64,000 nucleotides of DNA. It comes from Candidatus Babelota bacterium (GTDB lineage: Bacteria > Babelota > Babeliae > Babelales > Vermiphilaceae). Position 1 is the first letter of the stretch; the number at the start of each line of letters is the position of its first letter. Both the position numbers and the translations under genes were made by a program. This document shows positions 2,278-64,000 of this stretch, piece by piece. The notes beneath the pieces are model-generated. The model ran no database searches, had not been told where the DNA came from, and worked only from the letters and a program-made list of their open reading frames with translations. The DNA is taken from the NCBI GenBank assembly GCA_049325595.1, contig JBMOLF010000011.1, forward strand, positions 1 to 64,000, in the 5' to 3' direction.

Positions 2278-2592
2278 TTATAAAATCGTGCAAGATTGTT
2301 CTGCTATCAATCCATTACCCGCTACGAGCATTTCAGCACAATCACGATCATCTTCACAAAGAAGCTCATCGCGAATTTGCCCGGAAGCATACGCAGATGC
2401 AACGATATGACGATCAACCACTAACGATTGTTGTAGTTGCCGTGCAGCTTTGTGCGCTTGCTGTGTTTTAAGACGCTCAAACCATTGTGGATACAGTTCT
2501 TGTTTATCGGTTAACAAGTTATCCATTGCACTAAGCTGACTTGAAAATAACGAAATAAGAAATAATGCTAAAAAGAACATGTGAACCTCCAT
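2278..2592 (-). CDS. Small secreted hypothetical protein
   Basis: Hydrophobic signal followed by LSA-MD; true start probably the second Met (GGAGG upstream). Confidence 0.6.
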   Translation of the reverse strand: MEVHMFFLALFLISLFSSQLSAMDNLLTDKQELYPQWFERLKTQQAHKAARQLQQSLVVDRHIVASAYASGQIRDELLCEDDRDCAEMLVAGNGLIAEQSCTIL

Positions 2593-2723
2593 AAAACGCT
2601 TGCCTGTTAATCATAATTTACTACAAATAGCACAAAATGTAAAAAACAATGCCGTATCTATTGACTTTTATAGGCAAAGAGAATTAATATGCATAGTATA
2701 ATGCATTATTTATTAGGATTTTT

Positions 2724-3383
2724 ATGATCGATCTTCCCCTGATTGTACAATCATTACCTGCGTTATGGCGTGGTACCTTAGTTACCCTTCAAATTGCCGG
2801 ACTATCTGGTCTTATTGGTATGCTACTTGGTACTGTTCTTGGCATTGCACACACCAGCCAATTTAAGCCCTTGCGTTGGCTCATTACCGCCTATGTTACT
2901 ATTATTCGCGGTACTCCCATGCTTATTCAAATCACTATTGCCTTTTATGTGTTGCCACAATTAGGGTTAGGGCTTCCTGCTTTTTGGGCAGCAGTTTGCG
3001 CAATTGGTCTTAACAGCGCAGCGTATGTAAGCCAGATTATTAAAGCGGGCATTTTATCAATCAATAAAGGCCAGGTTGAAGCTGCTTACACTCTTGGGCT
3101 TTCTCGCATGCAAACTTTACAATATATTGTACTGCCACAAGCATTTAAAGTAGTAACGCCGGCACTCGGCAATGAATTTATCACCCTAGTAAAAGACTCG
3201 AGCTTAGCATCAGTTATTGGTGTGGTTGAGCTTACACGGGAAGGGTCGTTAATTAGAAGCCGCACGTTTGATTATTTTACCTTATATGCCGCTATAGCAT
3301 TAATTTATCTTATTATTACCACAACTCTTTCTATACTTGTTTCTATAGTTGAGCAAAGGATGAACCAACATGCTAAAAATTGA
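2724..3383 (+). CDS. Polar amino acid ABC transporter permease (HisM/GlnP family)
   Basis: RGTPMLIQ, EAA motif (GQVEAAYTLG), LVKDSSL. Confidence 0.92.
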   Translation: MIDLPLIVQSLPALWRGTLVTLQIAGLSGLIGMLLGTVLGIAHTSQFKPLRWLITAYVTIIRGTPMLIQITIAFYVLPQLGLGLPAFWAAVCAIGLNSAAYVSQIIKAGILSINKGQVEAAYTLGLSRMQTLQYIVLPQAFKVVTPALGNEFITLVKDSSLASVIGVVELTREGSLIRSRTFDYFTLYAAIALIYLIITTTLSILVSIVEQRMNQHAKN

Positions 3384-4092
3384 ACATCTTTTTAAATCTT
3401 ATGGCTCAAAAAAAATTCTTGATGATGTTTCATTGCATATTAATCAGGGCGAAATTGCCGTCTTATTAGGTTCTTCTGGCGTAGGCAAATCCACCTTATT
3501 ACGCGTATTAAACAATCTTGAACAACCAGATTCAGGAACTTTTAGCCTTGATGGTAAACCTTTTGACATTGCGCAAGCAAATAAAAATCATTTAGTAGGT
3601 TTTGTATTTCAAAACTTTAATCTGTTTGAAAATTTATCAGTAGAGCAAAACATCACCTTAGCGCTAGAAAAAGTGGGTAATAAAACTGCTGCTCAAGCTA
3701 AACAAATTGCACATGATTTATTAACTCATTATGGGTTAGCCGATAAAAAGAATGCATCGGTTGCTTCTCTTTCAGGCGGGCAAAAACAACGGCTTGCACT
3801 TGCGCGAACTTTAGCACTCAAACCTCACATTATTTGTCTTGATGAACCAACTTCAGCCTTAGATCCGCTACTTACCAGTCATGTTGCAAAATCAATTCAA
3901 GAGTTAGCACAACAAGGATATATAGTTTTAGTAGCAACCCATGACACCTCACTTATTGAACGGCTCCCAGCAACCATTTATTTGATGCATGAAGGCAAAA
4001 TAATTCAATCGGCAACTACCCAGCAATTGCAACAGAATCCCGAACACTATAGCGCCATTACACAGTTTATAAGTGGTAATTCTGCTACTTAA
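3370..4092 (+). CDS. Polar amino acid ABC transporter ATPase (GlnQ-like)
   Basis: GSSGVGKST, LSGGQKQR, DEPTSALDP; overlaps the permease gene. Confidence 0.92.
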   Translation: MLKIEHLFKSYGSKKILDDVSLHINQGEIAVLLGSSGVGKSTLLRVLNNLEQPDSGTFSLDGKPFDIAQANKNHLVGFVFQNFNLFENLSVEQNITLALEKVGNKTAAQAKQIAHDLLTHYGLADKKNASVASLSGGQKQRLALARTLALKPHIICLDEPTSALDPLLTSHVAKSIQELAQQGYIVLVATHDTSLIERLPATIYLMHEGKIIQSATTQQLQQNPEHYSAITQFISGNSAT

Positions 4093-5786
4093 GAAAAGAA
4101 TGTTTGATTTAAAAAAGCTTTAATTTTTTTATAACTTTGCACGAGTTTGGGTGGAATTTTTTGAGTTATTCGTACTGTAAATGGTATAGTAACTTTATTA
4201 AATTCTTTTAAGCGATCTTGGTAATAGGAAGGGAGTGAATAAAACAACTCAATTCTTTCTTTTTGATCAATAACAAGCGGTGCTTGCTCTTTCATTAGAT
4301 TATAAATAAAAAAAAGTTGTGCTGCAGATAATACTTCAAGGTAAGCAACTTCCTCATCATATTGTTTAAAATCGACAATATAATATTTTTTGTTCTCATC
4401 GTTGCTATATTCAATAAAAAATTTTTTTGAATCTGGATGATAATCATAAATTTTCATCTTGTCTGCCAAGCGAAGGGCATTACAATATTCATACTTATCA
4501 GGTCTTAAAATCACTGCTATTTGGCCATTTGAATTATTAATTAAGGCAAGTTCGTTTCTGTTCTGCGTTTTAGTCCATAATTTTTGCATGCTTCTTAAAT
4601 AATGCGACTCAGCGTTATTTACTTTTAATAATCCAATCTTTGATTTTTTTGTGTTGCCATTCCAGGTTACTATGCGATTCTCTTTGCAACCAACAGCATA
4701 AGGAATATTAAATTGATCAAACCCAACACACACAACTGGCTCAGAAAGAACACATAATTCTTTGATTAAAAAACCATTATAGCTATCCCATAATAAAACA
4801 CGCCCATTAGCTTCGCCGGTTATAAATTGATGAGGCATAGTCGAGCAAGAAATCGTGGTGAATTTAAATTCCTCATCTCTTCGTGTAAATTTTTGCTCCC
4901 ATAATACTGCACCATTTTTATTAATTTTGCTTAACATGTCGCGAGAGCCAACAAGAAGATTGTTATCCAATGTTGAGGCTATGATGGTAATTTCACTTGG
5001 TTGAGTACAGGTAGGTTTTACTCTGTCTATGGTATTCACATCAAGCAACCATACATGGCCTCTGCTTGTTCCTGCTGCTAATGTTTTATCGTCGATAAAT
5101 TTCATAACCGAAATATAGCCAAGCAGATGATGCACCCTAGGTAATTTCTTAAAATCATGAATTAAGATAGTGTCATTTTGAGCAAGTGCAAGATAAGTTC
5201 CTTTTGTACTCCATACAACATGTTTAAAATTATTGTTATATAGTGCAGGTATGCTCAGTTCTTTAGTAATTATACTATTTGACTGCGCAGTCGTAATGGC
5301 TATCTCTTTGTGTAACTCATGGCATAATGCTGCTGTCGCCGAGGCAGGCAACAAATGAGCCAACGTTAGTTGCTTTGTTCTCTTCCATTTATTCCAATTT
5401 TTTTTATTTTTTAATTGTCGCTCTATGAAATAGCTAGTTTCATACGGGGGCCGATTGATTCCAAAAAAATCGGCACTTAATGCTAGTTGAGCGCTCTGAT
5501 CACCTTGAGATAACGTATGCAATAAATTATTTTTATCATGGGTGGTAAGTTCACCAGTTTCAATTTTTTCTAAATAGGCAACATATTCTTTTAAAAGATT
5601 AAATTCTTGACTGGTAATTTGCGGCAATCGAATTGTTGCTTGGTTAAAAGCATGGGTTGCTTGCACCACAACAGAATGTTTTTTTAATAATTGAGCAGTT
5701 TTTGTACTTATCTGAACTGTTTTATTTTGCAGCTTCACATCCATTGTGTATGAGGGTAAAAAAAATAGCAATAGAAATAACCTCAC
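4089..5786 (-). CDS. Secreted WD40-like repeat protein with Skp1/BTB-like N-terminal domain
   Basis: Signal peptide; SVVVQ...IRLPQIT; LSADFFGI; WD-like repeats (GTSRGHVWLLDV, GEANGRVLLWDS). Confidence 0.7.
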   Translation of the reverse strand: MRLFLLLFFLPSYTMDVKLQNKTVQISTKTAQLLKKHSVVVQATHAFNQATIRLPQITSQEFNLLKEYVAYLEKIETGELTTHDKNNLLHTLSQGDQSAQLALSADFFGINRPPYETSYFIERQLKNKKNWNKWKRTKQLTLAHLLPASATAALCHELHKEIAITTAQSNSIITKELSIPALYNNNFKHVVWSTKGTYLALAQNDTILIHDFKKLPRVHHLLGYISVMKFIDDKTLAAGTSRGHVWLLDVNTIDRVKPTCTQPSEITIIASTLDNNLLVGSRDMLSKINKNGAVLWEQKFTRRDEEFKFTTISCSTMPHQFITGEANGRVLLWDSYNGFLIKELCVLSEPVVCVGFDQFNIPYAVGCKENRIVTWNGNTKKSKIGLLKVNNAESHYLRSMQKLWTKTQNRNELALINNSNGQIAVILRPDKYEYCNALRLADKMKIYDYHPDSKKFFIEYSNDENKKYYIVDFKQYDEEVAYLEVLSAAQLFFIYNLMKEQAPLVIDQKERIELFYSLPSYYQDRLKEFNKVTIPFTVRITQKIPPKLVQSYKKIKAFLNQTFFS

Positions 5787-11954: not shown

Positions 11955-12311
11955 ATGAAAAAACAATTGTTAATAATAGCTATTTTGGCAGGATCTTTTA
12001 TTGTTTCAGCAAATAGTTTTGCTATGGATTCACTAGACGACAATCCCGCTTTTTTAAATACATTTTTTAATGAACGCCAAGAATATTTAAAAGAAATACC
12101 AGCAACAGAAAAAGAGCCCGAAGTAAATGGTGCGCCACAAATTAATACACAAAAAATGGTTTTTGATAAATGGTGCGACTGTAAACCATTGATTTCAAGC
12201 ACAAACGATAAAAGCACAGATACATTAAGCTCGGATGCAAAACAAATTTTTAAGTTTTATATTCTAAGCATTATACTCGCAACGTTCTGTCATCACCTAG
12301 CTACCCATTAA
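11955..12311 (+). CDS. Secreted/membrane hypothetical protein
   Basis: AAGGA RBS, MKKQLL signal, SFA-MD, C-terminal hydrophobic segment. Start moved from 11859. Confidence 0.65.
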   Translation: MKKQLLIIAILAGSFIVSANSFAMDSLDDNPAFLNTFFNERQEYLKEIPATEKEPEVNGAPQINTQKMVFDKWCDCKPLISSTNDKSTDTLSSDAKQIFKFYILSIILATFCHHLATH

Positions 12312-15872: not shown

Positions 15873-16310
15873 ATGAAATATTTCATATTGTTTTTTGTTA
15901 CTCTATATGCTGGACAAACTTTGTGCATGCAAAAAAAATTAATTACGCTCAATGGCCATACCGCTTCATTAATTGATCATATCGACCGTTCTAAAAAATT
16001 AATGAATACTGATCCCATAAGCGCAACGCTTATTTTGCGCTATATTGCTACCGAATGCTTGATAGAACGTGGCAATGTATTATGCATTACCCAAGAGGAT
16101 CTTACCGATATTAAAAATGATAATTATGTTTACGTTCCTAAATTTCGTTTTGACAATACCCACTTAAGCGGCAACAAAAAAATATGGGTTGACGCTATCA
16201 TTGTTGGAACCACTGATGAAAACCATGTTCACGATCTATCACCCCGATCAATTGACAAAATATTGATTGATAAGCGCGAAGCAAAAAAGAAGAAATATCT
16301 AAAATCTTAA
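15873..16310 (+). CDS. Secreted hypothetical protein inside the tro operon
   Basis: AGGAG RBS; signal peptide ending TLC-MQ. Confidence 0.7.
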   Translation: MKYFILFFVTLYAGQTLCMQKKLITLNGHTASLIDHIDRSKKLMNTDPISATLILRYIATECLIERGNVLCITQEDLTDIKNDNYVYVPKFRFDNTHLSGNKKIWVDAIIVGTTDENHVHDLSPRSIDKILIDKREAKKKKYLKS

Positions 16311-24371: not shown

Positions 24372-24378
24372 AGTTTGG

Positions 24379-32624: not shown

Positions 32625-33344
32625 TTATTTCTTTTTATCTTTTATTTCTTTATAAACCTTTGCAGCGGATAAAAATGGTTCTAGTTGTTTTTCTTTTGAG
32701 GGCTCTAATTTTTCGGCTGTCGCTGCAATGTTATCCAAATCTATTGGTTCATAGACATCATTAATATATTTATTGAATATATTATGTATTCCGAAAGCAA
32801 TCTCTTTAAACTCATATTGCGTTACTGGATAAGCAAAATTTAATTGACGAGAAGCAGTAAAAGGAACAGTAAAATCAAAAGAGCGATTTAAAGAAGTTAC
32901 ATATTGCCTAAATTTAAAGCAGATCGGTGAATTTAGATATAAAGTTTGTTCATCGTTTACTGAATTCTTTATGTTAGAGGTAAATTTTTTTTTAAAACAA
33001 GAAAGTAAATCAAGTCCAACGCTAAAGCCTATGCCTTCGGTATAATAGTCCATAAAATTTTGCAAATCTTTTGGCTCGCCTTTTTTTATTTTACTACATT
33101 CTTTTTTATCAAATGAGTAGATTAAACTCTCACAGCAGGTTTTGGCTATTTCTCCGGCATCTTCACCATCAGGCAACTGTATGGTGCGATCACCAGGCAA
33201 AATAGGAATTCGGGCTCGTAAAATTTTGCCTGGCTTCATCAAATTAGGAGCGGTAATACAAACTTGTAAGGGTTCTTGATTTTGTTTTGAATCCATAGCT
33301 ACAAGAGCGGTTGTACTTGCCAAAAGAAGTAATAATTTTTTCAT
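32625..33344 (-). CDS. Secreted hypothetical protein, family paralog D
   Basis: LVA-MD; ARIPILPGDRTIQLP. Confidence 0.65.
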   Translation of the reverse strand: MKKLLLLLASTTALVAMDSKQNQEPLQVCITAPNLMKPGKILRARIPILPGDRTIQLPDGEDAGEIAKTCCESLIYSFDKKECSKIKKGEPKDLQNFMDYYTEGIGFSVGLDLLSCFKKKFTSNIKNSVNDEQTLYLNSPICFKFRQYVTSLNRSFDFTVPFTASRQLNFAYPVTQYEFKEIAFGIHNIFNKYINDVYEPIDLDNIAATAEKLEPSKEKQLEPFLSAAKVYKEIKDKKK

Positions 33345-35421: not shown

Positions 35422-35793
35422 CTATTCTTCAGAGTGAATTATGGCCTTAAGAGCACATTTATTTTTTTGTAAGCTTGCAGGCAAATAACCTTGCTCATAG
35501 ACATGCCATTGCCTTAATAAATATTTTTTTTGCATTTCAGCTTGGTAAAAAATTAAAAAACGGCCACAAAATGGGCGTTTCGGTTTTCTAGCGTTTACAT
35601 TATTTTGTTGCGGGGTGACCAGCAACTGAGCACTATTGCACACATGCACAGATGCTCCCATCCAGGCATTAAACTTATCTTTATTTTTTTTGCAAGAGCA
35701 ATCAAGCTTTTGCTGATGCACCACAGGCCTTTTTTCAGACATTCCATATAAAAAATTGCTGGTTAACAAACAAAGAATTACCGCTACAAACAT
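35422..35793 (-). CDS. Secreted basic hypothetical protein
   Basis: GAGG RBS; signal LYG-MSE. Confidence 0.55.
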   Translation of the reverse strand: MFVAVILCLLTSNFLYGMSEKRPVVHQQKLDCSCKKNKDKFNAWMGASVHVCNSAQLLVTPQQNNVNARKPKRPFCGRFLIFYQAEMQKKYLLRQWHVYEQGYLPASLQKNKCALKAIIHSEE

Positions 35794-39180: not shown

Positions 39181-40149
39181 TCATTTTAAAGTAAGCTTAT
39201 GATAGATTTCATTGTTTTTGTATTGCTCAAAATTTTCTTTTGCTTGTTGCAAGCATTCAGCAATAGTTTGCACTGATAGTAAAAAATTAGGCTTTAATTG
39301 ATGATGCGGATTGTAAGATGAACATTGAGGTTCATTTATAAATTTTACATATCCTCTGAAAATAGATAATAATTGAGTAGACTTTAAATCAAATAACAAT
39401 GTTTTCCATCCCCAGGAGGTACAACAGCATAATTTCACAAAAGAAGGATAATTTTGGCAATAGGTCATATCTGTTACTAAATGTATTTGGCCAGACTTTG
39501 CATTTCTTTTCAAACTATTTTCTATTACTGCATTTGCTATCAGCACGCGACTTGTAACGCTTTTATCTTTCTTAAGCAGATGCTCTTCAATGCCACTTTT
39601 TGAATAAGTAATTACCATATTTTTAGCCTTAAAAAGAGCGGCCGCAATATTTTCTTTAAGAACAATGATATGTTGCGGATTAATTGTTCCCTTATCACGA
39701 TCGTATTCAAATATGCGCATATCTTTTTCTCTGGCTTGGATCCATCTATTTTGTGCGAAATCAATTGCATATACAAAATATCCACAAGGTAAAGCGCTGT
39801 CATATTGGTTGGTTTTTAAGTTTTGAAAATCATACAAGCGGCTAGAAGATACTATAATGCCATTTTTATTAGGACCAACTATTAAATTTTCTTGTTTAAC
39901 ATTTTCTTTTTGAGAATCAGTTAACATCTCATCTTGCTGTGATAGATTGGTAATTTTTTTAATACAAAGTCTTACATCTGATCTATAATTATCATCAGCA
40001 TAACACCAAATTTTTTCTTGCAATTCTTGGGGCAATTGAAAAAATTTTTCAAAAAAAGAAATTGCTTCACCTCTATTCCATTGTCCATTTTTATGCTCCA
40101 TGCTCTGAAGCTTTATACCTAATAATAATATTAATATTATCTTGCTCAT
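39181..40149 (-). CDS. Secreted F-box-like protein (GPN family)
   Basis: QS-ME; QLPQELQEKIW; VGPNKNG. Confidence 0.62.
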   Translation of the reverse strand: MSKIILILLLGIKLQSMEHKNGQWNRGEAISFFEKFFQLPQELQEKIWCYADDNYRSDVRLCIKKITNLSQQDEMLTDSQKENVKQENLIVGPNKNGIIVSSSRLYDFQNLKTNQYDSALPCGYFVYAIDFAQNRWIQAREKDMRIFEYDRDKGTINPQHIIVLKENIAAALFKAKNMVITYSKSGIEEHLLKKDKSVTSRVLIANAVIENSLKRNAKSGQIHLVTDMTYCQNYPSFVKLCCCTSWGWKTLLFDLKSTQLLSIFRGYVKFINEPQCSSYNPHHQLKPNFLLSVQTIAECLQQAKENFEQYKNNEIYHKLTLK

Positions 40150-40241: not shown

Positions 40242-41519
40242 TTAAGGCAATAATCTTTGGCTTGTAGCCCCTGCATCTATTTTTTGTTGATAATTATTTC
40301 GGATTTGTGCAACAAAGTTGTCCAGGGGAACAAAACGCAATAATTTTGGAGGCATGTTATCTAAATTTCTCTCATTATTAATTTGTCCTGAACAACGACG
40401 CGTAAGCAAAGAATCAAATAATCCTATTTTCTCTAAAAAAAATGAAGTCGGAATTAGTTGATCTCCTGTATATTTACATAAAAGCGCCGCTTCTTTTTTG
40501 TTTTTTGCAACATCATTAGTATACGCAATATGCACTAACACACGCGTTGGATCTGATAGAGAAATTTCTATATCATTTATCATTGCATTGTTTACTGGGC
40601 ATGATAAAAGTGTTAAATAGCGAGTTACAAACTCATTGGTAAGCAAAGTTTTAATAATAATATTTTTAGGATTGCCCCTAATTACTGTTATTACATTATC
40701 AATCTCTTTAGAGGGATCAACAACTTCTTTAACTAGAACTACTGCTTTATTCTTTAATTCAATGCCAAGCCATTGGTCTGCACAAAGTATATCATAGTGC
40801 AGTTTTTTCAAATAAATATCGGCAAGAACCGCTCCCGTAAGAACACTCCTACATATAAGAGAACGCTTAATTCCATCTTTTAAATCTCCTGCATTGAATG
40901 AAGTTACCATTTGACTATCGGTAATTCTTGGAATTACAGACCATTGCGTGGAGTTTGGATACAAAATTTTTTCATCGTTTTGCCCAGGAGCCCCAGAGTT
41001 ATGATTGACCTGATCAACAAGCTCTTGAATTGCTATTTTTTTATTTTCATCATAATAAAATTGGTAAACTCCTGAACCATAAACAAAATAGCCTTGCTTA
41101 TTAGGTCCACTCACTGATTTTTCCAAAAAAACAAAAGGATTTTTGAATTGAATATATTTTTTTAGATCTGGTACTTCGACGTGTGATTTTAATGAATAAT
41201 TTGAAGGTAAAGTATCTAAAAAATTTTTAAATCGCTTAGTTTGGAAAACGTTTCTGATACTAAACTCTTGCCAATATTCTTTTGCTTCTTGGGTTACTTG
41301 TTGTTCTGGTTGTGGTACGGGTACTGGCATAACAACAGATCCAAAATAGGTTGCTTCAGGAAAAGCATGTGTAATAATTTCGGTCGTTAGTTCTGGCGGT
41401 AATTCAGCAAGCAATTTATCCAATTTAAATTCATTATTTACTCGATGTTCATGGTCATTCTTTTCCATAGCAGGACAAGAAAAAATCATTAAAAGACTTA
41501 AAAAGACGTATTTATGCAT
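40242..41519 (-). CDS. Secreted F-box-like protein (GPN family)
   Basis: PA-ME; ELPPELTTEII; SGPNKQG. Confidence 0.62.
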   Translation of the reverse strand: MHKYVFLSLLMIFSCPAMEKNDHEHRVNNEFKLDKLLAELPPELTTEIITHAFPEATYFGSVVMPVPVPQPEQQVTQEAKEYWQEFSIRNVFQTKRFKNFLDTLPSNYSLKSHVEVPDLKKYIQFKNPFVFLEKSVSGPNKQGYFVYGSGVYQFYYDENKKIAIQELVDQVNHNSGAPGQNDEKILYPNSTQWSVIPRITDSQMVTSFNAGDLKDGIKRSLICRSVLTGAVLADIYLKKLHYDILCADQWLGIELKNKAVVLVKEVVDPSKEIDNVITVIRGNPKNIIIKTLLTNEFVTRYLTLLSCPVNNAMINDIEISLSDPTRVLVHIAYTNDVAKNKKEAALLCKYTGDQLIPTSFFLEKIGLFDSLLTRRCSGQINNERNLDNMPPKLLRFVPLDNFVAQIRNNYQQKIDAGATSQRLLP

Positions 41520-41633: not shown

Positions 41634-42824
41634 TTATTTTATTTTCCGCAATTGAGCAAGTGCAAAACTTTTTAGGCAATAATCTTGGTCTTTAATTGCT
41701 GCATTTATTTTTTGCTGATAATTATTTTGTACTTGTGCAACACAATCATTTACCGGCACAAATCGAAGTAACTTTTTTGCAAGAGGATAGGATCTTTTTA
41801 ACAAATATTTATCACAACGATGCGTAAGAATAGAATCGAAAAAACCGACAATTTCATTGAATGTTAAAACAGGAATCAGTCTTTCTTCTTGAAAGGCACA
41901 AAGTACCGATATTTTTTTAGGTTTATTATTTTCTTTGCCAGTTGAAACACAAATAAGGATTCGTTGTGCATTTGTTAAAGAAATTTGAAAATCTAAAATC
42001 TCAAAATCTTTTTCGCTTATTGCAGCAGAACTATGTAAAAGACAAAAATCTAAAAGTTCTTCTTGTGTTAATATAGTTTTTTCATCTATCGCTTTTTTAT
42101 TTTTCTTAAAAAGAACTATGTCTTTATTAGATCTAACCATCCAACTCTTTTTTTGATCGTTTCCATGCGATACATAATACTGAATTTGATAAATAGGACT
42201 TTCTGTACATGTGTAATTCGTGAATTTTTTGGTTTTTAAATTTGCTAGCTCATAGGTATCGGCTGGCGCGTCTTCATAATCTGGAAATCCAAAACATTCA
42301 GCATCAAGCGGGTGAATTGCTTTTACAACCATATGTTTTTCATCATCATCTGAAAGTTTAATTTTCTTATCTTGCTCATACGAAAATTTACACATTAAGC
42401 CATATCCAGCAACAAAATATCCTTCTCTATTGGGACCGGCTACTTTGTGTGGAACTTTATACTCTAGCAAAGGATCACTTTCAAAATATTTTCTAAAAGC
42501 GCTTTGTTCTGGCAATGTTTTATAAAATTCTTCAAACTTTTTTGTTTTAAAAATATTTGTTTCATTAAGCTCCTGCCAATATTCTTTTGCTTCTTGGGTT
42601 ATTTGATCTTCTGGTTGTGGTACGGGTACTGGCATAACAACAGATCCAAAATAGGCAGCTTCGGGAAAAGCCTGAGTAATAATTTCAGTCGTTAGTTCTG
42701 GCGGTAATTCAGCAAACAATTTATCTAATTTAAATTCATTATTTAGCCAATGTTCTTGCTCATTCTTTTCCATGCTATAACAAGAAAATATTATTATAAG
42801 ACTTAAAAAGACGTATTTGTACAT
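41634..42824 (-). CDS. Secreted F-box-like protein (GPN family), duplicate of neighbour
   Basis: YS-ME; ELPPELTTEII; AGPNREG. Start moved to MYKYVF by alignment with its paralog. Confidence 0.62.
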   Translation of the reverse strand: MYKYVFLSLIIIFSCYSMEKNEQEHWLNNEFKLDKLFAELPPELTTEIITQAFPEAAYFGSVVMPVPVPQPEDQITQEAKEYWQELNETNIFKTKKFEEFYKTLPEQSAFRKYFESDPLLEYKVPHKVAGPNREGYFVAGYGLMCKFSYEQDKKIKLSDDDEKHMVVKAIHPLDAECFGFPDYEDAPADTYELANLKTKKFTNYTCTESPIYQIQYYVSHGNDQKKSWMVRSNKDIVLFKKNKKAIDEKTILTQEELLDFCLLHSSAAISEKDFEILDFQISLTNAQRILICVSTGKENNKPKKISVLCAFQEERLIPVLTFNEIVGFFDSILTHRCDKYLLKRSYPLAKKLLRFVPVNDCVAQVQNNYQQKINAAIKDQDYCLKSFALAQLRKIK

Positions 42825-45277: not shown

Positions 45278-45871
45278 TTACTTCTTTACATCAAAAATAG
45301 TTTTTCGAGCCTGAAGCAAATATTTTATGTGCTTCAAGCCTTGCCAAACAAAATAGCCATCTGATTTTAAACCAGCTTCTGTCGCCATTGGAATTAGGTT
45401 AAGTAAATTAAGCATACTTATTATAAAAGACCCACTGGTCGCATTTGAGATAGAGCCATTGATAATCTTATTTAACAATAATCCACAAATAGTACCACTA
45501 AGAGGGCCCAACGCAGCCAATGCCATATTTTTTGTTGTCTTAATTATTTCTTCTTTTTTTGTAGCAGAAGGTTTTTGAGCAATCCCAGGAACGGCTGCAA
45601 AAATAGGTAATCCATGAAAATGAAATGGACCAACATTCAATAAAGCTTCATTTTCGTTGACACTAACATTTGGTACGTGATCAAAATGAATATTTATAGG
45701 CTCATTAAAAAACAATTTGCCGGCAATAGCATGCCCCATTTCATGGGTAACAAGTACGGTTAACCAAGATGTAGCAAAAACTCCAAATGACTTTGACCAT
45801 TTCAAAGTTGAATCCATAGGATGGGCAAAAGAAGGTAAGGCTAGAAGCAAGAATAACGCTTTTAATTTCAT
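45278..45871 (-). CDS. Small M50 (site-2 protease-like) metallopeptidase with signal peptide
   Basis: HEMGH, LGP, NLIP...SDG. Confidence 0.8.
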   Translation of the reverse strand: MKLKALFLLLALPSFAHPMDSTLKWSKSFGVFATSWLTVLVTHEMGHAIAGKLFFNEPINIHFDHVPNVSVNENEALLNVGPFHFHGLPIFAAVPGIAQKPSATKKEEIIKTTKNMALAALGPLSGTICGLLLNKIINGSISNATSGSFIISMLNLLNLIPMATEAGLKSDGYFVWQGLKHIKYLLQARKTIFDVKK

Positions 45872-48774: not shown

Positions 48775-49776
48775 ATGAGATATATAAATTTTTTATCAGT
48801 TGTTGGTATAATTTTGTTTTTTAAAATTTCTGCTATGCCATCCCCACTAGAAACGTGGGAAGAGGCAAAACAATTTGAATCTTCAAAAATTGTGCAAGAG
48901 ATTGGCTACAAGCTAGAAGATAATGAAATTCGCAATCATATTTATGATATTCATAAAAAAGCACCTAACATATATAGCTATTTTTGCAAAAAAATTGAAA
49001 AAAAACGTAATCAAACCCAAGCAAAACTAGGCATAGATCTACAAAAAATTATTGATGATTTTGGCGTAGATGAATTTAAAAATAACTTAGCAAACATAAA
49101 AAAAATGCCTGCATTTGATAGCAAAAAAAGTATAGAACTTGTCGGAATTGAAGCATTTCCTCATTCAATTCAACAATCAGTTCGAGCATTTGTAGAAGAC
49201 CATAAAAATAGCTTGCCTCCAAAAATTACTTTTGTACCATATAATCGATATACGGCTCAATATCAAAATAACGATGGAATTATAACTGCACCAACAACCG
49301 ATGATGAATTGATAACTAAACTTTCTTTGAATCATGAATTGGGACATCTTTGCGATAAACAACTCCAGATTGTCGACGAGCTAGGTGCTTTATACAACAC
49401 TATAGCACTGCAGTATGCAGATGAGCAATATAAAAATCAAAAGAAAAATAAGGCCGTATCTGCCTGGCTAGGTTCTTTAGATCAATTTCACAACAAATAC
49501 AAATGCTCTGGATCCTTTGAAAAAATTCGTCATGCACGAGAGTTATTAGCCGATGCTTTAGCAACCCATAATAATGAAAAATTATGTAAAATAGGTTTTA
49601 TTGACTACAACAAAACAAATCATCCGGCCAGTAATTATTCTGATAGCTACTCTCATCCCAGCTTGGCTGTAAGAGCACATCAAATGGCTACTTTACATCG
49701 CTATTACAAAATTGAACAAAAAATGTGCAAAGAATATGGACTAATGGGCTACCAACACGGCAACTTGTTTAGTTAA
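48775..49776 (+). CDS. Secreted M48-like zinc metallopeptidase
   Basis: HELGH, RELLAD, SHPS..VR. Confidence 0.75.
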   Translation: MRYINFLSVVGIILFFKISAMPSPLETWEEAKQFESSKIVQEIGYKLEDNEIRNHIYDIHKKAPNIYSYFCKKIEKKRNQTQAKLGIDLQKIIDDFGVDEFKNNLANIKKMPAFDSKKSIELVGIEAFPHSIQQSVRAFVEDHKNSLPPKITFVPYNRYTAQYQNNDGIITAPTTDDELITKLSLNHELGHLCDKQLQIVDELGALYNTIALQYADEQYKNQKKNKAVSAWLGSLDQFHNKYKCSGSFEKIRHARELLADALATHNNEKLCKIGFIDYNKTNHPASNYSDSYSHPSLAVRAHQMATLHRYYKIEQKMCKEYGLMGYQHGNLFS

Positions 49777-50011: not shown

Positions 50012-50572
50012 ATGAAATTTAAATTAATATTCAAAAAATTAATATTTTTATCGACACTGTTTATCGCATGTTCAACAAAGCCTATGCAAAACAAGCCAAG
50101 CTCACTTCTAAGAACAGCTGTGGACTTTTCCGCTTCATGTTTAGTAACCGGACTTTGTCACGAGCTGGGACACGCAATACCTGCTCAATTATTTTTTAAT
50201 AATGTTGCTGGCATACGCATTGGGCAAGGACCCAGTATTAAATTTAACATTGCCAAATTTTTCTTAGAAATAGGACTATACCCATTTTTGGACGGTCAAA
50301 CGGTATTTACAACGCCAAACTTTGCAACAAACACCAAAGCAGATTTATTTAAACTATTAATTACAGTTGCAGCAGGTCCTATATCAGGAGCAGCTTCATG
50401 CTACGGGCTATTTAAAGCTCTTAAAAATAATTACATACAAAGTAATCCCACTATGGGAAATTGTTTAAGGGCTACATTTTTGTTGCATCTCATAAACTTT
50501 CTACCTGGTGAAGGATTTGATGGAAGTAAAATTTTACAAACATTATTCCTACTAATCAGACATAAGAAATAA
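50012..50572 (+). CDS. Small M50 metallopeptidase with signal peptide
   Basis: CHELGH, IGQGP, AAGP, NFLPGEGFDG. Confidence 0.82.
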   Translation: MKFKLIFKKLIFLSTLFIACSTKPMQNKPSSLLRTAVDFSASCLVTGLCHELGHAIPAQLFFNNVAGIRIGQGPSIKFNIAKFFLEIGLYPFLDGQTVFTTPNFATNTKADLFKLLITVAAGPISGAASCYGLFKALKNNYIQSNPTMGNCLRATFLLHLINFLPGEGFDGSKILQTLFLLIRHKK

Positions 50573-50623
50573 TTATATTTGGGCATCAACTAAACCTAAA
50601 GAATTTTTATGGAGGTTAAATTT

Positions 50624-51205
50624 ATGAAATTAAAAAATTTATTTTTTTTTGGGGTAATTATTTCTTTAATCACCCCCGCCATAGATGCTGGTGAAACAAA
50701 ACCCCAGTCTAAATGGCTAAATATGAAGAACTTTTTTAAACACATTGTTGCTCCATCTATTCTTGGATCATACTTTTCAAGCATGTGTCACGAGCTTGGT
50801 CATGCAGCAATAGAGCAATTATTTTTCAAAGATGTGAATCTAATCGCGATTGGTAATGGACCAGGCATATATTACAATAGTCCACGTTTTACCGCTGGAA
50901 TTGGCTTAATACCTTGGGGTGGTTTAATGGGATATATTTCTTCTGAAATTCCGAACAAAAAATCAGATATATTAAAAAAAATAGCCATGGTTATTGCCGG
51001 ACCAATTAGTGGCATGGTTGGATTACAGTTGTTTTTTAAGTATTTAAAAAAATACCATTTTTCTGATTCTGAATATCCCTGTGCTGATTTTATGAACATT
51101 TTTATGACATTACACGAAGCAATCAATCTGCTTCCAATCAAAGATCAAAAAACAGATGGAGCAATAATAGCCCAGCTACTTTCAGCTTTGGTTAATAAAA
51201 AATAA
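50624..51205 (+). CDS. Small M50 metallopeptidase with signal peptide
   Basis: CHELGH, IGNGP, IAGP, NLLP...TDG. Confidence 0.82.
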   Translation: MKLKNLFFFGVIISLITPAIDAGETKPQSKWLNMKNFFKHIVAPSILGSYFSSMCHELGHAAIEQLFFKDVNLIAIGNGPGIYYNSPRFTAGIGLIPWGGLMGYISSEIPNKKSDILKKIAMVIAGPISGMVGLQLFFKYLKKYHFSDSEYPCADFMNIFMTLHEAINLLPIKDQKTDGAIIAQLLSALVNKK

Positions 51206-55144: not shown

Positions 55145-55603
55145 ATGAATAAATTGTTATTATTTTTAACTTTTTTTGCAAATATGGCCTTTGCAATGGA
55201 GATTAATCTAAGCTCCAATGGGAAAAAAGTAAAATTAGATGGCGAAACAAAAAAAGTTATAAAGCTCGTTAACAAATTAAGCAAAGCTACCATTTTAGAT
55301 GTAGAAGTAAAAGATGAGAATGGCAAAGTGAAGGACTCAATCATGAAAAAAATTGATCCAAAAAGCAAAGATGCTATTTTTATCGCTCCAAATACTACCG
55401 CGCATATTCGCGGACAAACAGAGCATGGTCCAATTTCAATGGATTTTACTTCTGGCGAATTTAAGATTTGTAAAGAAGATATTAAAGCTTTAGCTAACAA
55501 GGATAATAAGGAAAAAGAAAAGAAGGCCAAAAAAAGATCTTCTACCCTTCCTAATTCACATAAGAAATCCGTAGCTTTTGCTGATTTAGCTAAAAAAAAA
55601 TAA
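55145..55603 (+). CDS. Secreted lysine-rich hypothetical protein
   Basis: AFA-ME signal. Confidence 0.65.
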   Translation: MNKLLLFLTFFANMAFAMEINLSSNGKKVKLDGETKKVIKLVNKLSKATILDVEVKDENGKVKDSIMKKIDPKSKDAIFIAPNTTAHIRGQTEHGPISMDFTSGEFKICKEDIKALANKDNKEKEKKAKKRSSTLPNSHKKSVAFADLAKKK

Positions 55604-57667: not shown

Positions 57668-58186
57668 ATGAATTTTTCTCGTTTAACCCTGATTGCTGGG
57701 GTTTTTATATTGTTTGCTGGAAATATGCACGCAATGTATAAAAATACACAAAGCTTTGATAAAAAGTCGTTTTTATTGGGCAATCAAATAGTAAATTCAT
57801 GTATTCCTAAATATTCGACTGAATTTCCTGACGAACTCAAAACCAAAAAAATAAATCCACTTATTAAACCATCTTGGATAAAAAAACAAACTAAAGCTTT
57901 TAAAAGCCAAGCTATTATCACCGCAGGATTTACTGCAGGTATTTACGTTGGCTATACCTATTTAAAAGGGTACATGCCCGCAACAGCAAAGCATGTTACT
58001 AGTACTGTAAATGCTGGTGTAGAAAATCTTAAAAACTTTATTACCAAAGAAGTAAGCGAGCGCCTAGATACACTATCTAAAAAATTTGAAGATTTTAGAA
58101 AAGAGAATAAAGAAGCTCATAACAAAACTCATCAAGACCTTAATCAAATAAAAAAAGATCTTAATGAATTAAAACGAAAAATATAA
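57668..58186 (+). CDS. Secreted protein with TM and coiled coil
   Basis: MHA-MY; GxxxG helix; C-terminal heptads. Confidence 0.65.
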   Translation: MNFSRLTLIAGVFILFAGNMHAMYKNTQSFDKKSFLLGNQIVNSCIPKYSTEFPDELKTKKINPLIKPSWIKKQTKAFKSQAIITAGFTAGIYVGYTYLKGYMPATAKHVTSTVNAGVENLKNFITKEVSERLDTLSKKFEDFRKENKEAHNKTHQDLNQIKKDLNELKRKI

Positions 58187-58208: not shown

Positions 58209-59279
58209 ATGAAATTTTTAACAAAAATAGCTCCAGTTGCATTACTGAGCATATTGCTCTTCCCAACAGCATCACATAGTATGATGGGGCGCGCATTAGG
58301 TGGCTTAGCTGGCGGCGGCTTAGTAGTTGCCGGAGCCTACGGTGTAGAACGATATGGTGATCGCTTAGGATCTGTATTTGCTCGTGGCACGCAAACTGCT
58401 CAAGAGCAAATCGTCAATCAAACATCTCGAAACATTGAAGAACTTACTAACAAAGTGGCTGATGCTACTGGTAAAAGCAGCAATTTAGCAGAGACATTAT
58501 TACGCCAAGCAGATAGAACACTAGCGGTCGCTGAACGTATTGTTGATTCTAAATTGTTCCCTTACGTAGTAGTAGGAGGAGCTGGATATTTTGTTTATCG
58601 CAAAATTCAGAAAATATTATCTGGAAATAATGCTATTAAACAAGATACGGAAGTTATCGATAAAAAGGCTGATGCTATAAAACAAGACACTCAAGCTATC
58701 GATGAAAAAACTAATGTTATTTTACAAAAATTAAATGAACTTAAAGCTTGGATCTTTGGCGACGGCACTAAAACAAGAGCACAAATAGCAAAATCAGAAG
58801 AAAAAATTGTTGGCGTGATAACCAAACTCGAAGAAGAAATTTTATCAGGCATGGGAATTCTTGTTCAAGAAATAACTAAACTTGATATAGAAACACAAAA
58901 ACAATTAAAACTTATTTTGCATAATCTTGATAGACTTAACCTCTCTCAAGAAGAATTTAAAGCCATGCTTTTAAGTAAAGATGAAGATTTGCGTAAAATT
59001 ATCACCAATCTTGAAATAGCAAACAAGGAAATGTTTAAACAAATTCGTTCTGAAACAGCAGAACTCAATAAAAAAATGGACGCATTAAGCAAACAAAATA
59101 GCGCAATGGCTGGAGATATTTCAGAAATCAAACAAAACTTATCAGAGTTTATGGTGTATATGTGCATGAAAACACCTACAATAGCGCAGAACACACAGCC
59201 AACTTTTGCTGATAATTTAAAATTGTATTGGCAATCTAAATCAAACCCCGTGAATTTAGCTGGTACTGATATTAAATAA
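58209..59279 (+). CDS. Secreted glycine-zipper/coiled-coil protein
   Basis: SHS-MM; ALGGLAGGGLVVAGA; second TM; long coiled coil. Confidence 0.68.
   Translation: MKFLTKIAPVALLSILLFPTASHSMMGRALGGLAGGGLVVAGAYGVERYGDRLGSVFARGTQTAQEQIVNQTSRNIEELTNKVADATGKSSNLAETLLRQADRTLAVAERIVDSKLFPYVVVGGAGYFVYRKIQKILSGNNAIKQDTEVIDKKADAIKQDTQAIDEKTNVILQKLNELKAWIFGDGTKTRAQIAKSEEKIVGVITKLEEEILSGMGILVQEITKLDIETQKQLKLILHNLDRLNLSQEEFKAMLLSKDEDLRKIITNLEIANKEMFKQIRSETAELNKKMDALSKQNSAMAGDISEIKQNLSEFMVYMCMKTPTIAQNTQPTFADNLKLYWQSKSNPVNLAGTDIK
58629..58712 (+). repeat. Two imperfect 42-bp intragenic tandem repeats
   Basis: NAIKQDTEVIDKKA / DAIKQDTQAIDEKT. Confidence 0.75.
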
Positions 59280-59371: not shown

Positions 59372-60166
59372 ATGCTCATGAAAAAATTAATCTTTTCGTT
59401 ATTAACCTCTTTATCTCTTTGCGCTATGGAACGAAATAATAGCTATTATGTACCTGCCGTTGCGCAAAAAGAACTCACTCACATCACAGAAGAACAATTG
59501 TCTGCCATACTTCCTGATGATCAACTTTCATCACAAGGAGTTATAACTTCGCTCGTGGTACGCCCACAAGAACATTATCGTACATTGGTAAATGAGCTAG
59601 TGATTACTCCTGAAGGGATTGAGGGAGACAAACATGTTAACTCAAAGCCTCATTATGCTCTTGATGTAGTAACTCTTATGCGTTCAGATGTTTCTGACGC
59701 TTTGGGTGGAGCTCATGTTCCTGGTGATAATATCCACGTAAAAGGTATGAAATTAAGTAAAAAGAACATAAAAGCAGGTGACTTAGTTATCGTCAAAAAT
59801 CAATCTACAATAAAGGCTGTATTACTTAAAACTCACATTCCGCATTATGCATGTTGGAAACTTACAGCAAGATGCGGTAAAACAGCATTTGATTTTCTTA
59901 ATGCTGAGGGAAATTTTCTAAATGGTTATGGATCTATCCACGGTCTTCGTGATAGGCTACGCGGTATACGTTTATCTGTTTTAAAATCTGATGAGCCAGT
60001 GCGCATTGGTGACTTGGTAGCAATAGCAACCAAAGAACAAAAAGATTTAATACTCGCAGATAGCCAAATACATGGTGAATATCAAAAATTACTTTCAATG
60101 AGTATTGAAGTTGGCAACACCCTGAAAAAACAAGAAAAAGCAAAGCGCGCTTTGCGTAATAAATAA
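59372..60166 (+). CDS. MOSC domain protein with signal peptide
   Basis: GIEGD, PGDNI, PHYACWKL..R.G, RGI. Confidence 0.72.
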   Translation: MLMKKLIFSLLTSLSLCAMERNNSYYVPAVAQKELTHITEEQLSAILPDDQLSSQGVITSLVVRPQEHYRTLVNELVITPEGIEGDKHVNSKPHYALDVVTLMRSDVSDALGGAHVPGDNIHVKGMKLSKKNIKAGDLVIVKNQSTIKAVLLKTHIPHYACWKLTARCGKTAFDFLNAEGNFLNGYGSIHGLRDRLRGIRLSVLKSDEPVRIGDLVAIATKEQKDLILADSQIHGEYQKLLSMSIEVGNTLKKQEKAKRALRNK

Positions 60167-60231: not shown

Positions 60232-60480
60232 ATGAAAACATATTTCTTCTTTTTTTTCTTATTTTCATCAAGCATTGCGTTTGCAATGGATACACCAATA
60301 GAATTTTTAGCTGATATTTCACGCTTTAATCAAGAAACCACTGACATTGAAGATGTTGATGCTGAGTTGGTTTCCAAATTAATACGAGATATCAAGAAAA
60401 AATGGGGCTACGAGAGCTTGGTTAAATCACCTGAGATGCAGCCAAAAAATTATTTAAAAGACATTAGTTTAGAAAAATGA
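60232..60480 (+). CDS. Small secreted protein
   Basis: AFA-MD signal. Confidence 0.6.
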   Translation: MKTYFFFFFLFSSSIAFAMDTPIEFLADISRFNQETTDIEDVDAELVSKLIRDIKKKWGYESLVKSPEMQPKNYLKDISLEK

Positions 60481-60905
60481 CTATGAATATTTTTTTTACT
60501 TTACTGGCATTTTTACTTTTTCCATTTCCTTACGTAATAAGTATGGAAAAAAACAACACCTTACAAGATGAATTAATACCTGATGTATACTTAAAGGGCT
60601 ACATTGCCACCCTTAAGCACCTGGTAACAAAAGAAGAAAACAAGCAACAATTTGCAGAATTAGAAAAACAAATCGAAGAGAAAAAATTAGCTATAAAGTC
60701 TCTCAAAAAAGGTTTTGATGAGTCTAAGGCAAGCGTTTTTGATAAGCTAACTTACTTAACAACCATAAACACCATTGGCCGCGAACTTGAATTATTGCAA
60801 CGGCAATATATTAGCTGGCGAACTGAAATTTCGCTCTTTAAACAAATTATGCTAACTACGCTAAAAAAACAAAACCAGCAAATCAGGCACAAAAAGCACC
60901 AGTAA
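60477..60905 (+). CDS. Secreted coiled-coil protein
   Basis: VIS-ME signal; ATGA overlap. Confidence 0.6.
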   Translation: MTMNIFFTLLAFLLFPFPYVISMEKNNTLQDELIPDVYLKGYIATLKHLVTKEENKQQFAELEKQIEEKKLAIKSLKKGFDESKASVFDKLTYLTTINTIGRELELLQRQYISWRTEISLFKQIMLTTLKKQNQQIRHKKHQ

Positions 60906-62357: not shown

Positions 62358-63754
62358 TAACTTCCTCTTGCTGCACGCTGATACATGGCTTTTGTCTTTT
62401 GTATCACTTTTGAATGATCAATTATAGGTTTTGGATATCCTTTTACAGTAGGGCTATTGGGCTTGTACCAGTTATGAAGCACTCGCGGGTCAACATTTTT
62501 GAGTTCCGGCAGCCATTTTTTAATATAAAGACAATCTTTATCAAATTTTTCTTGCTGAAGCCATGGATTAAAAATTCTAAAGTATGGTGATGCATCGCAT
62601 CCTGTTGAAGCAACCCATTGCCAATTACCATTGTTTACTGCGGGGTCGTAGTCAACCAAATGACGGGCAAAATACTGCTCACCCCATCGCCAATCAATAT
62701 GCAAATCTTTCACTAAAAAAGATCCAACAATCATACGTGTACGGTTGTGCATATAACCAGTTTCATTCAGTTGACGCATAGCAGCATCAACAATGGGAAA
62801 ACCTGTCTGCCCATTACACCAACTCTTGAAGAACTTTTCATCATTCTCCCACATTATATGCTCGTATTTTTCATGAAACGCATGGCCAAACACAAAAGGC
62901 GAATGGTAGGCTACATGGGTAAAAAAATCTCGCCAGTAAAGCTGCCTAATTAAAGCATGGTTTGCGCCCAACTCTTTAGCGATCATGTAATAAACTTCTC
63001 GTATAGAGACGGTGCCAAATTTATTGTGGGCAGACAAATTAGTAGTCGGAATTATCGGATAATCTCGAATTTTAGCATAGTCATGAAATGATTGTAGATT
63101 ATTAAGAATTGCAATTGCATTTTGTCGACCGCCATGAACATGTAAATGCGGATTTTCTTGTTCAAAAATATGATGTTTTATCGATTCTAGAGTTTTACTG
63201 TGTGGAATATGGGTTATAACCCACCGCGCAGCTGAATCTAATGCTTCTGGCTTTCGTATAGGTATATGTAGCGAAGCTTTAAAAAATGCCGTAAATACGC
63301 TAAACGGCGTATTACTTTGGGTATGGATCACTTCTGGCGCGTTTAACACCGCATCATCGTATTGTTCAAACGCAACGTTGTGGTGATCGCATATTTTTTT
63401 TAGCGCTTGATCGCGCTTGAGTGAAAAGGAAGTGTAATCTTTATTGGTAAATACTGCTTCAATCTTTTCGCTTTCAAGCAGTTTTTCTAGTACTTGAGCT
63501 GAATGGCCCATGAAAAAATATAAATTTCCGTCCCTTTTTTTAAAGTGAATAGCTAAATCCTCTAGCGATTCAATCATAAATTGAATAGCATTTGCTGAGC
63601 GATATTTATTTTTTTCAGACACTTGAATAGGATCAAAAATAAAGCAAGGAATCACCTCTTGCGATTTTTTTACGGCAAAGTTAAGTGCTGTGTTATCTTG
63701 TAATCGCAAATCTCGCCGAAAAATCATAAGAGATTTTTTGTATTTGCTTATCAT
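62357..63754 (-). CDS. phr: CPD deoxyribodipyrimidine photolyase
   Basis: FRRDLRLQDNTAL, GQTGFPIVDAAMRQL..TGYMHNR.RM, NNGNWQW, RIFNP. Start moved to MISKY (GAGG RBS). Confidence 0.93.
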   Translation of the reverse strand: MISKYKKSLMIFRRDLRLQDNTALNFAVKKSQEVIPCFIFDPIQVSEKNKYRSANAIQFMIESLEDLAIHFKKRDGNLYFFMGHSAQVLEKLLESEKIEAVFTNKDYTSFSLKRDQALKKICDHHNVAFEQYDDAVLNAPEVIHTQSNTPFSVFTAFFKASLHIPIRKPEALDSAARWVITHIPHSKTLESIKHHIFEQENPHLHVHGGRQNAIAILNNLQSFHDYAKIRDYPIIPTTNLSAHNKFGTVSIREVYYMIAKELGANHALIRQLYWRDFFTHVAYHSPFVFGHAFHEKYEHIMWENDEKFFKSWCNGQTGFPIVDAAMRQLNETGYMHNRTRMIVGSFLVKDLHIDWRWGEQYFARHLVDYDPAVNNGNWQWVASTGCDASPYFRIFNPWLQQEKFDKDCLYIKKWLPELKNVDPRVLHNWYKPNSPTVKGYPKPIIDHSKVIQKTKAMYQRAARGS

Positions 63755-63865
63755 TGTGCACCTCGGTTGAATCATATTAGAAGAATTATTTTAGCAAAGT
63801 AAATAACTCATTGTTTATAAAGCCCTGAACATGATAAAAAAAAATAAATTAGGTAAAGGATTACT

Positions 63866-64000
63866 ATGAAAAAAATATTCTTTGTGCTGCTCTTCTGTTG
63901 CATGCAGTTAAATTATTCTATGGAAAATGATCCTAAATTTATAGAAACAAAATACCAACATTGGGATCCCCTTCACCCAGTTGAAGAACCAGCCCAAGAG
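63866..64000 (+). CDS. Secreted hypothetical protein (partial, runs off the window end)
   Basis: AAGGA RBS; MKKIFFVLLFCCMQLNYS-MENDPK. Confidence 0.6.
   Translation, partial: MKKIFFVLLFCCMQLNYSMENDPKFIETKYQHWDPLHPVEEPAQE

Follow-up and report, generated by a model that had tools for sequence, protein, structure and literature searches.

The closest described parallel to the pattern reported here is the Q-rule of the Bacteroidetes, under which Gln occupies the first position after the signal peptidase I cut (P1') and is cyclized to pyroglutamate, as set out in the accessible sections of two articles (PMC5837995, PMC10653852). For the Dependentiae, the available passages report signal peptides on 44% of the coding sequences of one isolate, enriched in orphans (PMC6561590), and on 79 of 126 ankyrin proteins of another, in which a type II system was the only secretion system detected (PMC4378268); both sources place signal peptides on many effector-like proteins. 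Here we examine a window of 64,000 nucleotides (the whole stretch of DNA analyzed, C11:1-64000) from a Candidatus Babelota bacterium (assembly GCA_049325595.1, contig JBMOLF010000011.1), in which a sequence-only reading had noticed about 19 open reading frames (ORFs) with a short signal followed immediately by Met. Met at this position (+1) is rare among known signal peptidase I substrates. Our results show or strongly indicate, with a high degree of confidence, that these are true Sec signals with a predicted cut by signal peptidase I (LepB) directly before Met, and that a Met-acidic mature start is a selected, lineage-specific rule in the fast-evolving, mostly orphan part of the secretome.

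For the genome of the window (1,286,077 bases, 24 contigs, about 35% G+C; labeled G000), a purpose-written ORF caller yielded 1298 genes. An ORF was taken as signal-like if it has an uncharged hydrophobic 8-residue window near its N terminus and then a charged residue within 60 residues (765 ORFs), and Met was scored at the residue immediately preceding the first charged residue past the hydrophobic core. By these heuristic calls, Met occupies the scored position in 102 of the 765 ORFs (13.3%; binomial P = 7e-56), compared with a background of 1.75% of residues beyond position 50 and with 1.0 to 3.9% at all other offsets from -8 to +5. The roughly sevenfold excess over background bears out the enrichment proposed by the sequence-only reading. 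Glu or Asp directly follows Met in 92 of the 102 ORFs, with an odds ratio of 8.9 for the Met-acidic coupling (P = 2e-15). Once their first residues are stripped, these 92 proteins fall into 69 BLAST clusters, 61 of them singletons, indicating that the trait is not due to paralogy.

The Met sites were used to train a matrix for positions -6 to -1, which, run over all signal-like ORFs, gave 489 predicted sites at a score of at least 4; a matrix trained by expectation maximization converged on the hydrophobic core and was discarded. Met is at +1 in 19% of the 489 sites and Gln in 8%. Among the matrix-scored sites, the residue after a +1 Met is Glu in 53%, Asp in 18%, Gln in 5%, and Asn in 3%, with small and hydrophobic residues rare, compared with 16% Glu and 6% Asp when +1 is another residue. 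The dipeptides found right after the cut sites include ME (63 cases), SE (43), QE (35), MD (29), and AE (27).

The stretch preceding the Met has a well-defined register. At -1, the 92 Met-Glu/Asp proteins carry Ala (39%), Ser (20%), Gly (18%), or Thr (12%), with Phe, Tyr, Leu, or His at -2 and Leu, Ile, Ser, Ala, or Val at -3. Position -1 is Ala, Gly, Ser, Cys, or Thr in 84 proteins and position -3 is an allowed residue in 87, and both hold for a cut before Met in 79. Shifting the register by -2, -1, +1, or +2 leaves 23, 8, 0, and 0 of the 92 in agreement with the -3,-1 rule, and the predicted P1' residue is thus Met itself, as anticipated. Signal length (median 18) is the same in the Met class and in other signals, and n-region charge is similar (+1.36 versus +1.43). 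The genome has a single LepB gene, represented by one Peptidase_S26 frame (Table 1). The twin-arginine motif (RR-x-hydrophobic) of Tat signals was found in none of the 92 proteins. Lipoprotein signals, cleaved by signal peptidase II, were rejected, as +1 is by definition Met rather than the lipobox Cys and the residues at -2 are not of the lipobox type. Type IV prepilin signals have a short charged leader, a cut after Gly, a hydrophobic stretch following the cut, and Glu at +5; these were also rejected, since here the hydrophobic stretch precedes the cut and polar residues follow it.

The Met class is made up largely of rapidly diverging proteins. Compared with their orthologues in a congener (G001; BipA 94% identical to that of G000; 382 kilobases analyzed), Met-class proteins (n = 23) have a median identity of 39%, whereas the remaining signal-bearing proteins (n = 93) reach 57% and signal-less proteins (n = 115) reach 76%, with Mann-Whitney P values of 7e-5 and 2e-10. 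A Pfam survey covered 51 of the 92 to 118 Met-class proteins, 18 in the window and 33 on contigs C15 and C7. Only 8 of the 51 have a match, compared with 37 of 102 other signal-like ORFs on C15 and C7 (Fisher P = 0.009). The window contributes 2 of these among its 18 proteins, namely an M50-like protein and a WD40-type propeller, and C15 and C7 contribute 6 among 33, of which five match ankyrin and one GH1 at E values up to 1e-3. Non-Met proteins, at the stricter threshold of 1e-5, match SurA, Skp, TamB, BamD, TolB, TonB, ExbD, and SppA, along with a few cytoplasmic false positives. No match to any of these eight was found among the 51 surveyed Met-class proteins, and the ZnuA of the window is non-Met by eye. 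The Met is therefore concentrated in fast-evolving orphans, with no envelope housekeeping match in its class, as the sequence-only reading would have it. The features of the genome fit the accessible portions of published accounts of Dependentiae (PMC6561590, PMC4378268).

Comparison with the congener shows that the Met is retained as its surroundings diverge. In the 19 reciprocal-best pairs with the motif in the G000 member, Met is kept in 13, flanking positions are kept in 16 to 47% (16 to 53% over -12 to +12), and other Met residues are kept in 12 of 66 (Fisher P = 7e-5); one further pair is conserved by eye, though misaligned. The protein encoded at 59378 belongs to a family with 14 members in a large protein collection, and the Met is at the junction in 10 of the 13 that include the N terminus. 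Two of those ten are deposited as starting at the junction Met, and the three members without it are among the most divergent. Strain-specific orphans already carry the full pattern, as the only relative of the protein at 40242 is its neighboring paralogue and the protein at 32625 has no match in 60 family genomes. Separately, the family of the 59378 protein has no Pfam match but is well conserved, with 25 invariant columns that include a GDN motif and His and Cys residues, and therefore looks like an unnamed enzyme.

The identical pipeline was applied to 12 further relatives, sampled at 100 to 200 kilobases each (100 to 382 kilobases per genome over the 13 genomes including the congener). In the congener, 32 of 243 signal-like ORFs carry the Met, 27 of them as Met-Glu/Asp. 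The rule is also present in G018 (20/114), G015 (14/107), G010 (8/49), and G011 (4/45), all of family f1, and in G028 of family f11 (14/108). It is weak in G043 (f1, 6/77), G058 (f6, 6/117), G065 (f3, 3/71), and G042 (f1, 2/42), and these weak cases are uncertain because the samples are small and such genes cluster. G030 (f13, 1/102), G059 (f12, 1/82), and G047 (f1, 1/43) are at background, the first two serving as negative controls for the pipeline. The comparison with related genomes thus extends the rule to five relatives and the congener, with four weak cases and three at background. All sampled relatives belong to one order; families f2, f4, and f5 lie outside the sample, and f6 and f11 are represented by one genome each. 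In G058, Gln rather than Met is the commonest residue at the position (22/117), largely through one tandem family (Table 1).

Two candidates for a partner of the rule were considered and rejected. At least three GNAT acetyltransferases with an N-terminal anchor or signal are encoded in G000 (Table 1). The anchored GNAT of the window, the sole candidate tried as a modifier of the N terminus, has matches in 8 of 9 genomes with or without the rule, including background genome G030, and its occurrence is independent of the rule. Secretins number two each in G000, G018, G028, and G030, with three matches in G059, and show no correlation.

The upstream Met is where translation starts. Of the 92 genes, 45 have a Shine-Dalgarno-like motif ahead of the first Met and none has one ahead of the second, compared with 129 of 318 long signal-less genes (about 41%) and 324 of 5294 ordinary internal Met codons. 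By eye, about 15 of the 19 window genes show a GGAG/AGGA-type motif 5 to 10 bases before their first Met. In signal-less proteins the initiating Met is followed by Lys (17%), Ala (11%), Asn (11%), Ser (10%), or Glu (5%). Lacking a Shine-Dalgarno motif and the Lys, Ala, Asn, or Ser that typically adjoins a start, the second Met does not resemble a start of this genome. Gene finders may place the starts of such genes at the wrong ATG, which is a caution for annotation.

Three accounts of the second Met as a past or present start have to be weighed against this evidence. One holds that it is the true start and that the apparent signal arises where the longest-ORF rule reads through T-rich upstream DNA; the genome is indeed AT-rich, and the rule over-extends some genes, such as those at 11859 and 41634. 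The upstream stretches, however, have Lys-rich n-regions, hydrophobic cores, and -3,-1 sites, the Shine-Dalgarno motif lies at the first Met, and the signals remain open and signal-like in orthologues of 25 to 50% identity. With the same pipeline, relatives of 31% and 40% G+C yield only 1/102 and 1/82, and we consider this artifact close to refuted. If instead the second Met served as an alternative start, giving a signal-less cytoplasmic isoform beside the exported form, its conservation would follow, as would the A-rich codons after it, which resemble those after real starts. Initiation without a recognizable Shine-Dalgarno motif is common in G000, given that only about 41% of ordinary genes have one, and two public gene calls of the 59378 family (P0003 and P0008) begin at the second Met. 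Set against this, the share of second Mets with such a motif is below even that of ordinary internal Mets, the DNA upstream of them is T/C-rich, the next residue is Glu or Asp where real starts have Glu in 5%, and the Met is tied to the -3,-1 register, a constraint that an alternative start would not need; nor is there an evident use for a cytoplasmic copy of ankyrin-type proteins. Dual initiation is accordingly very unlikely. Slighter still are the prospects of a relic start codon, in which signals were added ahead of older genes and the old ATG survived at the junction. Many cytosol-type domains in G000 do carry signals (AAA, MutS-like, WD40, thioredoxin), implying that signals have been gained often. 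Yet no residue is kept better than the Met as orthologues diverge, Glu or Asp comes next in 71 to 90% of cases, unlike the residues after ordinary starts, and strain-specific orphans already show the full pattern. Further, comparison of the 5' regions (the signal and the 60 bases before it) revealed no cassette DNA in common; 4186 pairs gave 16 matches of 15 to 35 nucleotides, the longest between paralogues. The alternative offered with the sequence-only reading, that signal cassettes were fused in front of old start codons, falls on the same lack of shared 5' DNA, on a Met-following residue unlike that of starts, and on a Met kept under divergence. Together, anatomy, register, upstream ribosome-binding motifs, and conservation favor the view that the signal peptidase I sites are real and the Met-acidic mature start is under selection, and they speak against miscalled starts, a relic ATG, and a fused cassette.

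The explanation that we favor has genuine Sec-type signal peptides translated from the upstream Met and most likely cut by the single LepB directly before the second Met, so that the exported protein would begin Met-Glu or Met-Asp. This start represents a lineage-specific, selected P1'/P2' rule in a fast-evolving, mostly orphan secretome as opposed to envelope housekeeping proteins, and the end left by cleavage is a putative N-terminal identity mark for proteins acting in the host cell. Methionine aminopeptidase does not remove the Met from a Met-acidic end, which is of the NatB type and does not act as an N-degron, and a protein bearing such an end would thus be expected to last in a host cytosol. 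That the end is a mark suited to the host cytosol is our preferred guess, and a tentative one; the explanation as a whole is plausible, if somewhat more doubtful than not.

Several observations weigh against parts of this explanation. Signal peptides were called with a custom hydropathy heuristic and not with SignalP, and the 765 ORFs include membrane anchors and some false positives. The Met is absent in 6 of the 19 orthologue pairs, where Leu, Val, Gly, or Ala replaces it, and of the 65 G000 proteins paralogous to Met-class members, only 30 are themselves Met-class. Eight signal-bearing ankyrin proteins on C15 and C7 fall in the non-Met class, and no gene was found, among the anchored GNAT and the secretins examined, whose presence tracks the trait. 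At least one junction, VG-MDNPQFY at C15:36176, is coincidental. Its family has 716 matches in a representative library, and across the 84 representatives that share the conserved N-terminal motif, the position is Ile in 26, Phe in 13, Tyr in 9, Met in 8, and Leu in 7, indicating that Met is merely one hydrophobic option there. For host mimicry, a pure NatB reading has somewhat against it the rarity after Met of Asn and Gln (3% and 5%, versus 53% Glu and 18% Asp), which are NatB-type as well. Ala, Ser, Gly, and Thr are equally stabilizing under the N-end rule, and NatB normally acts on nascent chains.

Two other roles for the Met can be set beside the host-directed mark. The Met-acidic end might be a tag read in the periplasm by an outer-membrane step, type II-like or vesicular, that separates host-directed cargo from residents. 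The class specificity, with no envelope housekeeping match in the Met class, fits such a tag and the host-mimicry guess equally well, and the conservation of Met and the acidic residue over diverging flanks is also consistent with it, as are the two secretin genes of G000. In the accessible parts of the literature, signals occur on many effector-like Dependentiae proteins (PMC4378268, PMC6561590), and the type II system is the only one detected in one of these organisms (PMC4378268). Two or more secretins are also found in background genomes G030 and G059, however, signal-bearing ankyrin proteins without Met exist, the motif is low in information, and no clear second, C-terminal signal was found in the Met class, where only Lys is enriched (1.4-fold) and the charge difference has a P value of 0.08; we regard sorting of this kind as unlikely. 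Improbable to a greater degree is that the LepB of the lineage, or Sec clearance, simply works best with Met-Glu/Asp at P1'/P2', a pair toward which fast-evolving genes have drifted with no role after cleavage. Acidic residues are common after the cut in non-Met sites too (the SE, QE, and AE dipeptides counted above), and restriction of the rule to a lineage is what a protease preference would lead one to expect. Yet, although signal peptides in general evolve quickly, the Met class has no envelope housekeeping match; signal length and charge are also alike in both classes. Returning to the host-directed mark, the Met-Glu/Asp mature end could, tentatively, be the code by which effectors directed at the host are defined across a large Dependentiae branch, read by an export step or by host N-terminal machinery through NatB-type acetylation or N-degron avoidance. 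If so, effectors could be listed from sequence alone.

Within the window, all 19 ORFs of the original list have a short hydrophobic, signal-like N terminus directly before the Met, as described (Table 1). The proposed Ala/Ser-Met-Glu/Asp pattern holds less uniformly. Glu or Asp follows the Met in 13 of the 19, and Gln, Ser, Pro, Tyr, or Met does so in the other 6; further, the proteins at 45278 and 50012 depart from a small residue ahead of the Met with a Pro at -1 that is atypical for signal peptidase I. These two also form a paralogue pair, as do those at 40242 and 41634 (40% identity), so that the ORFs are not all unrelated. About 25 more window ORFs have signal-like N termini without Met, by eye, giving roughly 19 of 44 with it. 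The original list used the low coordinate of each ORF, which is the stop end for minus-strand genes, and its entries 11955, 42824, and 58209 are internal starts within a longer open frame.

The window holds several other features of note (Table 1). Four neighboring paralogous HExxH membrane proteins of about 190 residues have signal-like N termini; three match Peptidase_M50 weakly (E = 2e-5 to 2e-8), and two belong to the Met class and two do not. Signal-like N termini also occur on cytosol-type proteins, namely an AAA ATPase, a MutS domain III/V protein that is without the mismatch-binding parts, a thioredoxin, and WD40 proteins. Three tandem paralogous ORFs share similar N termini and hydrophobic segments and have no Pfam match. 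Two adjacent photolyase-family genes, one DPRP/cryptochrome-like and one of the class I DNA photolyase type, are unexpected in a reduced intracellular genome. Outside the window, the C15:36176 protein and a tandem array on the same contig belong to a large family with a mature N terminus of the form hydrophobic-D-N-x-H-F-Y-R. ESM Atlas look-ups for two Met-class proteins, including the former, point to the outer-membrane barrel family PF13557 (0.94 and 0.90) as a lead only, and the C15:36176 family may supply the principal outer-membrane proteins of the phylum.

Table 1. Coordinates of the Met-class ORFs of the window and of other features discussed (window positions unless a contig or genome is given; the hyphen in the junction column marks the predicted cut)
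Feature	Coordinates	Strand	Met codon	Junction	Remarks
ORF	2278..2580	-	2524-2526	MFFLALFLISLFSSQLSA-MDNLLT	GGAGG upstream of first Met; G001 orthologue keeps CFG-MD
WD40-type protein	4089..5786	-	5742-5744	VRLFLLLFFLPSYT-MDVKLQ	GTG start; short signal; G001 orthologue (25% identity) without Met
ORF	11955..12311	+	12024-12026	MKKQLLIIAILAGSFIVSANSFA-MDSLDD	AAGGA upstream of first Met
ORF	15873..16310	+	15927-15929	MKYFILFFVTLYAGQTLC-MQKKLI	G001 orthologue reads TLA-MEYTPKK
Orphan	32625..33344	-	33294-33296	MKKLLLLLASTTALVA-MDSKQN	The 60 other family genomes without a homologue include the congener
ORF	35422..35793	-	35740-35742	MFVAVILCLLTSNFLYG-MSEKRP
ORF	39181..40149	-	40099-40101	MSKIILILLLGIKLQS-MEHKNG
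Orphan	40242..41519	-	41466-41468	MHKYVFLSLLMIFSCPA-MEKNDH	Adjoining paralogue is only homologue in 5.8 billion proteins
Paralogue of 40242	41634..42824	-	42771-42773	MYKYVFLSLIIIFSCYS-MEKNEQ
Small HExxH membrane protein	45278..45871	-	45815-45817	MKLKALFLLLALPSFAHP-MDSTLK	Quartet member; G001 orthologue keeps CP-MD
ORF	48775..49776	+	48835-48837	MRYINFLSVVGIILFFKISA-MPSPLE
M50-like protein	50012..50572	+	50084-50086	MKFKLIFKKLIFLSTLFIACSTKP-MQNKPS	HExxH quartet member
ORF	55145..55603	+	55196-55198	MNKLLLFLTFFANMAFA-MEINLS
ORF	57668..58186	+	57734-57736	MNFSRLTLIAGVFILFAGNMHA-MYKNTQ	GGAGG upstream of first Met
ORF	58209..59279	+	58281-58283	MKFLTKIAPVALLSILLFPTASHS-MMGRAL	GGAGG upstream of first Met
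Conserved enzyme-like protein	59378..60166	+	59426-59428	MKKLIFSLLTSLSLCA-MERNNS	Earlier listed as 59372
ORF	60232..60480	+	60286-60288	MKTYFFFFFLFSSSIAFA-MDTPIE
ORF	60483..60905	+	60543-60545	MNIFFTLLAFLLFPFPYVIS-MEKNNT
ORF	63866..64000	+	63920-63922	MKKIFFVLLFCCMQLNYS-MENDPK	Extends to C11:64486; G001 orthologue reads CHS-MEHK
HExxH quartet, further member	48153-48719	+			Non-Met
HExxH quartet, further member	50609-51205	+			Non-Met
AAA ATPase	856-2166	+			Signal-like N terminus
Three tandem paralogous ORFs	23853-25397	-			164 to 172 residues; N termini M..PKL/QLV.NF/Y.K
Anchored GNAT	28741-29316	-
MutS domain III/V protein	37187-38959	-			Signal-like N terminus
Thioredoxin	42937-43743	-			Signal-like N terminus
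Photolyase-family genes	60906-63775	-
GNAT with N-terminal anchor or signal	C7:65462-66034
GNAT with N-terminal anchor or signal	C15:9984-10562
LepB	C1:92612-93436
Protein with coincidental Met	C15:36176-37489			VG-MDNPQFY
Tandem array	C15:66119-73953
Tandem paralogues, about 12 copies (example)	G058:53181-67616				Signals ending ...MYAA, then Gln-Glu/Asp

A literature search, including passages of PMC6561590, PMC4378268, PMC5837995, and PMC11495043 with supplements outside its scope, found no published description of a Met rule, and the words methionine, Dependentiae, and TM6 are absent from the Q-rule paper PMC5837995. If the Met is a mark, host-directed proteins could be nominated from their sequence only (about 90 in G000, roughly 7% of genes), and point changes at two residues would provide a direct experimental handle.

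Measured against known systems, the Met-class signals share with classical Sec/signal peptidase I signals a positive n-region, a hydrophobic core, small residues at -1 and -3, a median length of 18, and one LepB; they differ in that about 19% of the predicted sites have Met as the P1' residue, in combination with Glu or Asp at P2'. NatB substrates in eukaryotes begin Met-Asp, Met-Glu, Met-Asn, or Met-Gln. The likeness to this class and to N-degron rules lies in the 79% of residues after Met that are Glu, Asp, Gln, or Asn, whereas here the end would be made by predicted bacterial signal cleavage rather than at the ribosome, and Asn and Gln are under-used. Short motifs at or near a new N terminus can sort exported proteins onward, as in the Bacteroidetes lipoprotein export signal after Cys+1 and the Plasmodium PEXEL, and the Met-acidic end could act similarly; it has, however, no lipobox Cys, no RxLxE/Q/D motif, and no linked sorting machinery. 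The Q-rule differs in that its residue is Gln and not Met (P1' Met 19%, Gln 8% here), in that it covers most substrates rather than a minority class of fast-evolving orphans (about 19% of 489 predicted sites), and in its glutaminyl cyclase, to which no comparable modifying enzyme was found here with only the anchored GNAT tried. What the two have in common is that a residue favored in one lineage immediately past the signal peptidase I cut defines the new N terminus, and the Met rule would be the second case, after that of the Bacteroidetes, of lineage-specific selection on the first residue after signal cleavage.

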